DNA of 13,225 bases from a virus: the UHGV virus genome UHGV-0112548; one strand, 5' to 3'. Below the pieces are notes generated by a model, which saw nothing but the letters and a program-made list of their open reading frames with translations, ran no database searches and had not been told where the DNA came from. Of this stretch, positions 2,901 through 5,481 are shown piece after piece (the first letter of the stretch is position 1; the number at the start of each line of letters is the position of its first letter). Position numbers and translations under genes: made by a program.

Positions 2901-3239
2901 CTATTTCCCTGAATTTACGACGAAACTGTTCGAGCGGGCTGAAGCACTCATGCTCATAGCCTTCGCGGAGGTAGATAACCCGTTGTGTTTCCGGCTCCCA
3001 ACGAATGACTCTGACGGGCACTCCGTAGTGATCTTTGAACCAGCGGTTAACTTGTCGCAAAGGACTGTCTCCTTCTGCCGGTTGAAATCACCCACAGCCC
3101 ACTCTGCAAAGCTGTGGGTTACAATTTCCCTGTCACCTGGTACATTCACTGCATAGCAATATTCCACCTTCGCTTTTCCACCCGGTACAGGAAGCGCAAT
3201 CAGTTGCGAGCAACGGTAGTGTGTTGTTAAACTGTTCAT
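2901..3239 (-). CDS. hypothetical protein; apparent frameshift near 3060-3087 (C-terminal part continues in another frame to 2881)
   Basis: ATG at 3239 overlaps the upstream stop (ATGA). The first ~55 aa look protein-like, the frame then turns Ser-rich, while the -1 frame reads ..[42 protein letters not shown].. and stops at 2881, overlapping the initiator start. Confidence 0.4.
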
Positions 3240-3820
3240 GCGTTAGTTTCTCCACAACCAGAAGCAATCGACGCCACGACGCCCGGAGCTGCACACTCGC
3301 GGGCGTTACTCTTTTCCGGCGCACAAAAAACACGAAATAACAGTGTTAAATGCTCCTGCCACTTCGCCATTACTTGGTAGCTGTTCTCTTCGATTTGCTC
3401 ACGCTCAGCCTGGTCAATAACTCCATCAGCAGTTGCCTTGCGTAAGTACTGGGAATGCTTGCCAATCCATTCTATTGACTCCATCAGCCGCTGATTAATG
3501 TCACCATTGTCAATGTCATCAATGACCACCAGCGGCACAAACACCCCATTACTACGACGGGCTATTGCATCTGTTACATGCCTGGTACCACTGGCATCCT
3601 GTAAAACCATGGCCCACTCAAGTGGAAAAATTTGATCCCCACCGCTACGCAGTCTGTTATGCAATTGATCTTTTGCTGGGGTGATATCATCAGATTTATA
3701 CAAACCAAGAATTTCTGCTGCTTCCTCATAGCCATGAGGTAAATCAGCAATCGTTCTTCGTATTGCTGCCACCAGCCATGCTGGTTGTTTATCAACTTTC
3801 CATTCAGGTTCTTTACCCAC
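3236..3820 (-). CDS. CII-like / YdaT-like early regulatory protein
   Basis: 194-aa ORF with GTG start at 3820 and GAGGAA SD 8 nt upstream; sits directly downstream of the Cro-like gene, where lambdoid phages carry cII. Family assignment is from position and recollection only. Confidence 0.45.
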
Positions 3821-3847
3821 GGTTAATTCCTCATTTCTGTGGTGTTT

Positions 3848-4045
3848 TTATGCCGCAGCACTGTTAGTCTTTTGATATAAAGACACGTCAACTTTCAGTT
3901 TCCCGTTAGTAATTTTTTCTAACTGGTACGCTCGGCCTTCAGGAATAATCTCAGGCCACTCTGAAACAGACGGATGCTTAATACCTAGGGCTTCGGCAGT
4001 TTTACAAACTCCGCCGAAATAATTAATCACGTCGGATTTCCGCAT
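3848..4045 (-). CDS. cro: Cro-like repressor (YdaS-type HTH)
   Basis: 65 aa, divergent from the CI gene; NYFGG..KTAEALGI..SVSEWPE..IP..RAYQLE..T.GKLK matches the small Cro/YdaS-type HTH pattern; GGGAG SD upstream of the ATG at 4045. Confidence 0.7.
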   Translation of the reverse strand: MRKSDVINYFGGVCKTAEALGIKHPSVSEWPEIIPEGRAYQLEKITNGKLKVDVSLYQKTNSAAA

Positions 4046-4140
4046 TTCTGTCTCCCGTTAAATTACGTTAAGCAGAAATGTAGGATATCCAACATACCAA
4101 TGTCAAGAATCCTACATGGGCATGTGGTAGGATTGCCTAC
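4046..4140. promoter_or_regulatory. divergent PR / PRM-like promoter-operator region
   Basis: On the minus strand: TTGACA (plus 4101-4106), 18-bp spacer, TACATT (plus 4077-4082) with the 18-bp operator ATGTAGGATATCCAACAT (4078-4095) over the spacer and -10. A second symmetric element AATCCTAC-N11-GTAGGATT (4108-4134) overlaps a TAGGAT -10-like hexamer 7 nt before the cI ATG, implying a leaderless cI mRNA as at lambda PRM. Confidence 0.55.
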
Positions 4141-4794
4141 ATGATGAACATGAGTGATCGTATTCGCCAAAGGCGAAAAGAACTGAACCTGACACAACAA
4201 GCACTGGCTGATTTGACTGGTGTGAACCGTGTCACGGTTACTGGATGGGAAAAGGACGACTACCAACCAAATGGAGCCAACCTTCAAGCCCTAGCCAACG
4301 CACTTAAATGCGATCCTCTGTGGCTTGTTAGCGGAAAAGGCTCGCCTGAACCAAAGATAAATCTAAAACCTGAAATATTCGCAGTTAAAAAAGTCCCCCT
4401 CATCTCGTGGGTTCAGGCGGGTTCATGGACAATGACGGAGCCTGGTGTCAGGAAAGAAGATGCTGAAGAGTGGGTTTATACTACCGCCCTTGTATCAGAA
4501 ATGGCATTTGCACTACGGGTCCGTGGTGATTCAATGACCAATCCCCTCGGCTCACCATCGATACCAGAAGGTTCTATCGTTATCGTAGAGCCAGATATTA
4601 TTGATACAGAGTGTATTAACGGAAAAATCGTTGTTGCCCATATCAATGGTGGGCAAGAAGCGACACTCAAAAAATTTGTTGAGGACTGGCCGAACAGGTA
4701 TCTCGTCCCACTAAATCCTAACTATAAAACTATTGAATGCGGTGAGAACTGCAGAATAGTTGGTCTTGTCAAACAAGTAATAATGGATTTTTGA
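4141..4794 (+). CDS. cI: CI-type prophage repressor (HTH_XRE N-domain + S24 LexA-like autopeptidase C-domain)
   Basis: 217 aa; N-terminal HTH (LNLTQQALADLTGVNRVTVTGWE), C-terminal serine motif VRGDSM and downstream lysine (ATLKKF); divergent from cro across an operator region; no SD upstream. Confidence 0.85.
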   Translation: MMNMSDRIRQRRKELNLTQQALADLTGVNRVTVTGWEKDDYQPNGANLQALANALKCDPLWLVSGKGSPEPKINLKPEIFAVKKVPLISWVQAGSWTMTEPGVRKEDAEEWVYTTALVSEMAFALRVRGDSMTNPLGSPSIPEGSIVIVEPDIIDTECINGKIVVAHINGGQEATLKKFVEDWPNRYLVPLNPNYKTIECGENCRIVGLVKQVIMDF

Positions 4795-4815
4795 CACATC
4801 TTCCTCACTATCGCA

Positions 4816-4840
4816 AAACCGGGGTATCCCCGGTTTTTTT
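4816..4840 (+). terminator. rho-independent terminator downstream of cI
   Basis: AACCGGGG-TAT-CCCCGG GC-rich hairpin followed by a run of seven T (4834-4840), about 20 nt after the cI stop. Confidence 0.7.
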
Positions 4841-4856
4841 ATGAGCCTATCTTTTT

Positions 4857-4910
4857 ATGTAGGATAACCAACATAAACTCTTGACACTCACATGTTGGAT
4901 ATCCTACATT
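4857..4910 (+). promoter_or_regulatory. PL / OL-like promoter-operator
   Basis: TTGACA at 4881-4886, 18-bp spacer, TACATT at 4905-4910. Operator ATGTTGGATATCCTACAT (4892-4909) is the exact reverse complement of the PR operator at 4078-4095; a second copy ATGTAGGATAACCAACAT lies at 4857-4874. Confidence 0.55.
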
Positions 4911-4992
4911 TGTTTTTAGAGTAGCCGCCGGTGGCATATGAATAACCGGATGATTCGCTGACAGAAAACTTAGGTTGGGGGTAGAGGTTTAC

Positions 4993-5358
4993 ATGAATCA
5001 TTTATTCACATGCTCATTTTGCGGAGCAACCGAACTGGGAGCGATAAAGATCGTCGCAAAAGGTGGTAAGGACGAACCTGCCATCTGTTCGGAATGCGTA
5101 GTCACATGTGTAGAAAAAATGATCCTGACTAAAAAATCAGAGGCTGAAAAACCAACCTCTGATAACGAAATAATATCAGTCGATAAAAAACTATTTAAAG
5201 AGCTTCTTCAGCTTGTCCTCAACCTTCCTGATTTCGGAAGTAAGCTGGCTGCTGTTGACATTGATAGTAGCTCCACATCGACAAGTGAAACTTTTGTTCG
5301 ACTTGAGCCAAGCGATTTTCTTCTTCGTCTTAGTGCCGCACTTAGGGCATGCGGGTAA
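4993..5358 (+). CDS. small protein with ClpX-type C4 zinc finger (ClpX N-terminal zinc-binding-domain-like)
   Basis: First ORF downstream of the PL-like promoter; ATG at 4993 after a GGGGGTAGAGG SD (the track start at 4975 is an alternative). CSFCGATELGAIKIVAKGGKDEPAICSECVVTC parallels ClpX [30 protein letters not shown]; no AAA+ module follows. Confidence 0.55.
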   Translation: MNHLFTCSFCGATELGAIKIVAKGGKDEPAICSECVVTCVEKMILTKKSEAEKPTSDNEIISVDKKLFKELLQLVLNLPDFGSKLAAVDIDSSSTSTSETFVRLEPSDFLLRLSAALRACG

Positions 5359-5388
5359 CGTAATTTCCTGGTTATCAAAAGCGCCCAT
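5191..5388 (-). CDS. small zinc-ribbon protein, antisense to the 3' half of the ClpX-zinc-finger gene
   Basis: 65 aa from the second ATG (5388), which has an AAGAGGG SD about 7 nt upstream. Contains CPKCG..(18 aa)..CRCG and a Lys-rich tail. Overlaps 5191..5358 of the plus-strand ORF, so one of the two may be a shadow ORF. Confidence 0.4.
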   Translation of the reverse strand: MGAFDNQEITLPACPKCGTKTKKKIAWLKSNKSFTCRCGATINVNSSQLTSEIRKVEDKLKKLFK

Positions 5389-5481
5389 AAACATCCCTCT
5401 TGGTTGTGTGAGAACACCAAGATACCACCGCGCCTGATGTGGTTAAAAGCAGGCTAAAGCAATAACAAGTAACTCCCTGTT

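Follow-up and report, generated by a model that had tools for sequence, protein, structure and literature searches.

The repressor of phage P22 binds six natural 18-bp operators with the consensus ATTTAAGATATCTTAAAT (PMC5175364). The centre of symmetry of these operators lies between base pairs 9 and 10, and the protein contacts positions 2-7 and 12-17, leaving positions 8-11 uncontacted (PMC4267663). Phage lambda is built on the same logic: three operators serve its divergent promoters PR and PRM, more operators cluster at PL past cI, and its repressor is self-cleaving and of the S24 type; its operators are 17 bp long and unrelated in sequence to those described here. We analyzed the immunity region of the UHGV virus genome UHGV-0112548, a stretch of 13,225 nucleotides called the window throughout, in which a cI-like repressor gene is bracketed by copies of an 18-mer. 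The 18-mers and their relatives are very probably the CI and Cro operators of a P22-type switch. As read from the sequence, this switch follows the plan of P22 and phage 21 with another operator specificity, not yet characterised, and in itself would not surprise a specialist.

The divergent cro and cI genes are separated by a short control gap of 95 bp:

3848..4045, minus strand: cro-like gene, 65 amino acids, first gene of the PR operon (Pfam P22_Cro, E = 7.6e-22).
4056..4052, minus strand: Shine-Dalgarno (SD) sequence GGGAG of cro, 6 nt 5' of the cro ATG.
4141..4794, plus strand: cI-like repressor gene, 217 amino acids, with HTH_3 and Peptidase_S24 domains (Pfam).

Cro matches the structure of P22 Cro (1rzs, E = 7e-12), and CI matches both the full-length lambda CI structure (3bdn, E = 7e-25) and N-domain structures of P22 C2 (2r1j and 3jxb, E = 5.7e-14). 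In the alignment CI shows 45% identity both with P22 C2 and with the 21-type repressor (44-46% by tblastn), and Cro is 48-49% identical to the Cro proteins of P22 and 21.

The 18-mer ATGTAGGATATCCAACAT occurs with no mismatches at 4078-4095 on the plus strand, and its exact reverse complement lies at 4892-4909. In 200 dinucleotide-preserving shuffles it found no match with up to three mismatches. A consensus promoter scan of positions 3600-5400 returned just two strong sigma-70-like promoters, both composed of TTGACA, an 18-nt spacer and TACATT, and each of them holds one of the two 18-mers:

4077..4106, minus strand: PR, with -35 TTGACA at 4106..4101, 18-nt spacer and -10 TACATT at 4082..4077; 10 of 12 consensus matches.
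4881..4910, plus strand: PL, with -35 TTGACA at 4881-4886, 18-nt spacer and -10 TACATT at 4905-4910; 10 of 12 consensus matches.
4078..4095, no strand assigned: OR1, ATGTAGGATATCCAACAT, near-consensus, over the PR spacer and -10; position weight matrix (PWM) score 29.8, rank 2 of 13,208.
4892..4909, no strand assigned: OL1, ATGTTGGATATCCTACAT, exact reverse complement of OR1; PWM score 30.0, rank 1.
4857..4874, no strand assigned: OL2, ATGTAGGATAACCAACAT, 6 nt 5' of the PL -35; PWM score 27.4.

The matrix was trained only on the OR1, OL1 and OL2 sites of the clade and was scored over 13,208 positions of the window, where these three sites, followed by OR3 in fourth and OR2 in fifth place (both described below), take ranks 1-5. 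The initial annotation had proposed an identical operator at PR and PL, with the promoters pointing away from cI, and the exact inverted 18-mers together with the independently found promoters bear this out. It had set the operators between the -35 and -10 hexamers; they do lie within the promoters, and each covers spacer positions 6-18 and also the first five bases of the -10. The copy at 4857-4874, to which two changes had been ascribed, differs by one base from the OR1 copy and by three from the one at 4892 when both are read in one orientation. Transcription is predicted to start near 4070 on the minus strand from PR and near 4917 on the plus strand from PL, and the TTGAC of the PR -35 is kept in nearly all relatives.

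The symmetric operator consensus is ATGTAGGATATCCTACAT, with half-sites ATGTAGGAT and ATCCTACAT. It equals the P22 consensus at 14 of 18 positions and shares with it an ATAT-type uncontacted centre. The differences fall only at the contacted positions 3 and 6 and at their mirror positions 13 and 16: positions 3 and 6 are G here (half-site ATGTAGG) and T and A in P22 (ATTTAAG). The recognition helix differs in step with the operator, being SNVAISQ in P22 and NRVTVTG here. We would expect hetero-immunity toward P22 and 21, with a specificity that is neither that of P22 nor that of 21. A LexA box was considered for the 18-mer and rejected by inspection, since the site reads ATGT-N10-ACAT over 18 bp and not CTGT-N8-ACAG.

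The arrangement of the sites is also close to that of P22. A P22-type reference region was read from phage UAB_Phi20 and scanned with the consensus, and the two regions compare as follows:

OR1/OR2/OR3: P22-type positions 717/740/765 (offsets 23 and 25); window positions 4078/4100/4125 (offsets 22 and 25).
OL2/OL1: P22-type positions 1501/1536 (offset 35); window positions 4857/4892 (offset 35).

The distance of 35 bp between the centres of OL2 and OL1 is that of the P22-type locus L086. In both phages the PL -10 is made up of the last five bases of OL1 and one T, and OR3 adjoins the repressor start codon, its positions 4-9 reading TAAGAT or TAGGAT; a terminator after cI is then followed by OL and PL in the same direction. 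The two differ in that PR copies the PL layout here, with OR1 in the spacer and -10, whereas in P22 the PR spacer is occupied by OR2, with OR1 over the -10 and the start. Here OR3 and the repressor start codon share 2 nt, whereas in P22 the codon comes after OR3, and the PR operon carries ymfL/ymfM-type genes here and c1 in P22.

The two outward promoters form 29-bp inverted repeats (TTGACA-N5-18-mer-T) on either side of cI, and these could in principle be recombination sites or terminal repeats of an invertible or mobile cassette, as might be thought of inverted, nearly identical repeats that bracket a single gene. We consider this extremely improbable and rejected it, since the orientation of cI relative to cro is constant in all of the approximately 110 related loci examined. 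Moreover, there is no adjacent recombinase, further copies occur at 4857 and 4125, and the layout is homologous to that of P22, where the operators are experimentally defined. The repeats are far better accounted for as operators within promoters.

Between OR1 and the cI start codon, the initial annotation had described a distinct symmetric element at 4108-4134. The inverted repeat is present and exact in the window, with AATCCTAC (4108-4115) followed after 11 nt by GTAGGATT (4127-4134). Its arms are the half-site of the 18-mer, ATCCTACAT being the reverse complement of ATGTAGGAT, and the element is not distinct: it consists of the right half of one 18-bp site and the left half of the next. 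A better reading of the region has three 18-bp sites as in P22, in the order OR1, 4 bp, OR2, 7 bp, OR3:

4100..4117, no strand assigned: OR2 (weak), ATGTCAAGAATCCTACAT, whose left half is the PR -35 and whose right half is a perfect half-site.
4125..4142, no strand assigned: OR3, TGGTAGGATTGCCTACAT, which overlaps both the PRM -10 and the A and T of the cI ATG.

The PWM score of OR3 (17.9) exceeds the best of the 200 shuffles (16.7) although the site was outside the training set, and its GTAGGATTRCCTACATG is kept in 31 lineages. OR2 is weaker, and several observations count against the three-site operator as drawn here and against so close a likeness to P22. The site at 4100-4117 has 5 mismatches to the symmetric consensus and a PWM score of 8.3, which lies inside the shuffle range and is not significant alone; its right half degenerates in some relatives. 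P22 has OL1-3, whereas a search for OL3 upstream of OL2 found nothing within 6 mismatches and so no third OL site. A literature search for the operator strings returned only unrelated primer matches, with no prior description and no binding or transcript report among the papers covered. The poor OR2 score and the exact AATCCTAC-N11-GTAGGATT palindrome would suit a two-site OR composed of OR1 and OR3 only, in which the half-site at 4109-4117 has no function, or forms with the left half of OR3 a long palindrome for another protein or binding mode. We regard this as rather unlikely. The exact palindrome is lost in the relatives L068 and L081-L085 (which carry ATCTTAC or TTCTTAC), yet they keep OR3 and the 22/25-bp register. 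The proven OR2 of P22 lies at the same offset and is as degenerate, being the poorest match of its region with 6 mismatches. In addition, a helix-turn-helix dimer made for 18-bp sites would not be expected to span half-sites set 9 bp further apart. The site at 4100-4117 is therefore likely to be the true third OR site.

The switch may work as follows, where binding, the order of affinities, promoter activity and transcription starts are read from sequences, homologies, geometry and conservation. A CI dimer would bind the two-fold symmetric 18-bp operators. In the lysogen, CI at OR1 and OL1 would block PR, and with it cro, ymfL and the replication genes, as well as the rightward PL. OL2, located 35 bp 5' of OL1, and the weak OR2 over the PR -35 would probably add cooperative occupancy. 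At high CI concentration OR3 would be filled and PRM shut, so that CI would limit its own synthesis. A P22-type Cro would be expected at the same sites, where it would turn PRM off during lytic growth. SOS-induced self-cleavage of CI would free PR and PL. The self-cleavage residues Ala93-Gly94, Ser131 (within GDSM) and Lys177 are invariant in an alignment that includes P22 C2, and this invariance leads us to expect RecA-stimulated self-cleavage of CI through its S24 domain during the SOS response.

The promoter of cI itself has a peculiar geometry. TAGGAT at 4128-4133 is followed by 7 nt and then by the cI ATG at 4141, just as the initial annotation had noted, and the predicted promoter is:

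4125..4133, plus strand: predicted PRM, extended -10 TGgTAGGAT, with transcription predicted to start at the A of the ATG at 4141.

Neither inspection nor the consensus promoter scan found a recognisable -35 for PRM. We compared 31 non-redundant, diverged cI upstream regions from Enterobacterales. The cI ATG is the final three letters of CCTACATG in every one of them, and the hexamer stands exactly 7 nt from the ATG in 31 of 31; it reads TAGGAT, except in Proteus (TAGGCT). TGn precedes the hexamer in 30 regions (29 TGG and 1 TGT), while the equivalent bases of OR1 are ATG, TAG or TTG and never place TGn in register. This departure from the operator consensus, specific to OR3, creates what by sequence is an extended -10, and an extended -10 would explain a working promoter that has no recognisable -35. 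The cI start in RefSeq (WP_000981537.1) is the same as here, and in Morganella there is no second in-frame ATG for cI. Together with the conserved geometry, these two observations make a start at the A of the AUG the most economical reading, as in lambda, whose leaderless repressor mRNA begins at the AUG. The cI mRNA of the lysogen is, on balance, probably leaderless. The repressor PaaR2 of CP-933P, whose leaderless mRNA start was mapped by experiment, provides a precedent (PMC8630535).

Some points speak against a leaderless cI transcript made from an activated PRM. GTAGGAT serves at once as operator half-site, -10 and SD-like AGGA, and conservation alone cannot separate these roles. Moreover, with a start at 4141 OR2 would be centred at -32.5, which is no classical activator position, whereas lambda OR2 is centred near -42 of PRM (annotated coordinates). 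We therefore do not assume a lambda-like positive autoregulation of PRM by OR2-bound CI. The earlier statement that cI has no SD was too strong, since AGGA at 4129-4132, inside TAGGAT, lies 8 nt 5' of the ATG and could serve longer transcripts. The leaderless cI proposed there gains from the geometry conserved in 31 lineages, while the SD-like AGGA stays open to transcripts that begin upstream.

Such transcripts could come from an upstream promoter, for example one for establishment activated by CII/YmfL, with AGGA as the SD and TAGGAT conserved only as a half-site and SD. Several features fit a leadered cI mRNA of this kind: 8 nt is an acceptable SD spacing, a CII-like gene of the Phage_CP76 family lies at 3236-3820, PRM has no recognisable -35, and in lambda the establishment transcripts of cI carry a leader. 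We find it doubtful: in the lysogen, OR1 or OR2 would cover any rightward promoter to the left of 4117. TGG in place of ATG, specific to OR3, yields a TGn extended -10 in 30 of the 31 lineages and never at OR1, and this also argues against a leadered cI mRNA alone, as does the fixed gap of 7 nt, since the distance of an SD from its start codon need not be constant. Both modes can operate together, as they do in lambda. For the lysogen we favor the leaderless transcript.

The operators and the helix that would read them are conserved well beyond this genome. OR1 is unchanged in IMG/VR loci with CI identities of 92, 84-83, 80 and 76%, whose flanks are unalignable. Although synonymous sites are almost saturated in the 83% clade, its OR1, -35/OR2 and OR3 blocks are invariant. 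Phage mEp390 and the Yersinia phages YeP1-3 belong to the same clade, with 61-65% CI identity and an unchanged recognition helix and OR1/OR2/OR3/OL2/OL1 layout; they have one half-site ATCTTACAT or ATCTGACAT in place of ATCCAACAT. This substitution is found at both ends of the system, as OR1 and OL1 co-vary from CCAACAT to CTGACAT or CTTACAT at both sites in YeP1 and mEp390. The layout and the helix V(N/S)RVT(V/I)TGWE are kept in 21 of the 23 genome loci returned, with CI identity down to 48%. The loci belong to Trabulsiella, Enterobacter, Pantoea, Erwinia, Rahnella, Kluyvera, Sodalis, Tatumella, Proteus, Morganella, Serratia and other genera, and the recognition helix is invariant across the clade. 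The operator model proposed in the initial annotation is upheld in its essentials. The specificity, which had been ascribed to this prophage, is not peculiar to it; the recognition helix and the core of the operator are common to a clade that spans Enterobacterales.

Within this clade YeP2 (L003) carries a tandem duplication of about 250 bp (2190-2335 versus 2439-2584) that spans the 3' end of cI, the terminator, OL2, PL and OL1. YeP2 thus has two OL/PL control regions, and YeP1 has one. The match coordinates of YeP3 in the blast search are identical to those of YeP2, as judged from the coordinates alone. Outside the clade, the e14 prophage of E. coli K-12 (cohE/croE/ymfL) also has a ymfL-type gene beside cro, and only the 3' end of ymfL matches. 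An e14 immunity type was rejected, as the immunity genes and operators share no detectable DNA similarity.

The immunity region moves between phages as a whole. The segment 3848-4922 (1.07 kb) recurs at 99% identity or more in six phage records whose flanks differ, namely three Stx2c-converting phages and Lys8385Vzw, SKA5 and vB_EcoM-720R4. It is conserved to the same degree in 140 of 5426 complete E. coli genomes (approximately 2.6%). Among the carriers are Stx2c-converting phages of O157:H7 as well as prophages of O121, O111 and O103 strains. On the left the similarity ends, in some genomes, near 3843, which places this joint between ymfL and cro, and H114 matches only up to 3843. The right joint is sharp:

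4922..4923, no strand assigned: right mosaic joint, at about +5 of the predicted PL transcript; the homology of the six phage records ends at 4922.

In the 142 E. coli records the similarity ends at 4922-4925 among the matches listed, and two alternative right flanks are seen beyond 4922. Because similarity stops at approximately 3843 and at 4922, we conclude that 3844-4922 is a complete lambdoid immunity module that is exchanged as a unit.

We compared 65 near-identical copies of the module, which form 39 haplotypes and encode 100% identical CI proteins. Nearly all differences between them fall into three patches of 3 nt beside the operators:

4096..4098, no strand assigned: linker in the OR1/OR2 gap, in the PR spacer next to the -35; 3 alleles per column, minor-allele counts 4-14 among the 39 haplotypes.
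4118..4120, no strand assigned: linker at the start of the OR2/OR3 gap, hypervariable among module copies.
4888..4890, no strand assigned: linker between the PL -35 and OL1, hypervariable among module copies.

Nucleotide diversity (pi) is 0.30 at these nine hot positions, approximately 35 times that of the 136 four-fold sites of cI and cro (0.0087), and it is equally low in the five operators (0.0085) and at other non-coding positions (0.0078). The excess is also detectable when all 22 linker positions, a class defined beforehand, are considered (pi = 0.128; P = 2.5e-5 against four-fold sites, Fisher test). Five of the nine hot columns have three alleles, and adjacent hot columns show all four gametes, which points to recurrent mutation rather than recombination. 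The alleles 4118A/4120T are common to O157:H7 genomes from the USA and Argentina and to a Japanese Stx2c phage, and 4097T/4119A are common to another set. Sequencing error was rejected as the source, since the same alleles turn up in O157 genomes of independent origin (USA, Argentina and Japan). They are genuine variants, passed on stably within O157 lineages. It is also unlikely that the alleles were imported from diverged clades or copied between PR and PL by gene conversion, as they form single-step networks around ACC/GCC and CTCAC. PL linker alleles always keep a leading C, and PR alleles a leading TT.

The excess does not seem to be a general property of lambdoid switches. In 81 lambda-immunity loci used as a control there was no excess in the OR linkers (pi of 0.033 versus 0.092 at four-fold sites), and the P22 and imm21 linker sets were equivocal. 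We tentatively suggest that the linkers are sites of recurrent change. This could arise from local hypermutation where DNA is exposed or distorted between tightly bound repressor dimers and the -35 hexamers, or from repeated selection that tunes promoter strength or lysogen stability, including in Stx2c phages. Mutation hotspots beside transcription-factor sites are known from human tumours; a limited literature search found no bacterial or phage precedent for such hotspots. A separate observation concerns the coding part of the module, where the sole strongly polymorphic position is 4401. At this synonymous third position of a Pro codon of cI, which closes a run of five C (4397-4401), three alleles occur (C, A and T).

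Downstream of cI the layout again resembles that of described phages:

4815..4841, plus strand: intrinsic terminator after cI, 10-bp stem, 3-nt loop and U run; -17 kcal/mol, z -4.1.

Relatives have a hairpin with another stem sequence and a T run at the same place. The terminator ends the cI transcript before OL2, and PL is therefore a separate promoter reading in the same direction as cI. In lambda and P22 PL is likewise separate and reads the same way as cI; lambda, unlike this locus, has rexA/rexB after cI. To the left of cro are the ymfL/CII-like gene, ymfM and an O-like replication gene, and to the right of PL are genes for a ClpX-zinc-finger protein, RdgC and an HD hydrolase. The first gene 3' of PL (4984-5358) encodes a protein of 124 amino acids with a ClpX-type C4 zinc finger, whose Pfam match (E = 8e-6) falls slightly short of the curated cutoff. 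An N-like antiterminator would be expected where this gene sits, and other copies of the immunity module have quite different sequence at this place.

The predicted leaders of both outward transcripts contain repeats. In the cro 5' leader, just 3' of the PR start, a direct repeat CGTTAA-ATTA-CGTTAA occupies 4055-4070. In the PL leader a hairpin at 4928-4949 (approximately +12 to +33) consists of CCGGT, a 12-nt loop and ACCGG, followed by GATGATTCGC; the hairpin begins shortly after the mosaic joint at 4922/4923. The hairpin is conserved in several diverged relatives (YeP1, L068, L172-L174 and L189), in which three base pairs change on both sides. An Rfam search of the window and three relatives gave no match, hence no known RNA family for the PL leader. 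The hairpin could be a nut/boxB-like or another regulatory RNA element.

These data provide a concrete and testable map of operators and promoters for an uncharacterised immunity type carried by Stx2c phages and their Enterobacterales relatives. Two contacted positions per half-site differ from the structurally solved P22 site and are matched by changes in the helix, which makes the two phages a natural specificity-swap pair for the recognition of DNA by helix-turn-helix proteins. The hypervariable linkers, if they are true hotspots or tuning sites, would offer a new angle on the evolution of prophage switches. From the map one can predict which of these prophages would be homo- or hetero-immune, which bears on superinfection and on the stability of toxin phages.

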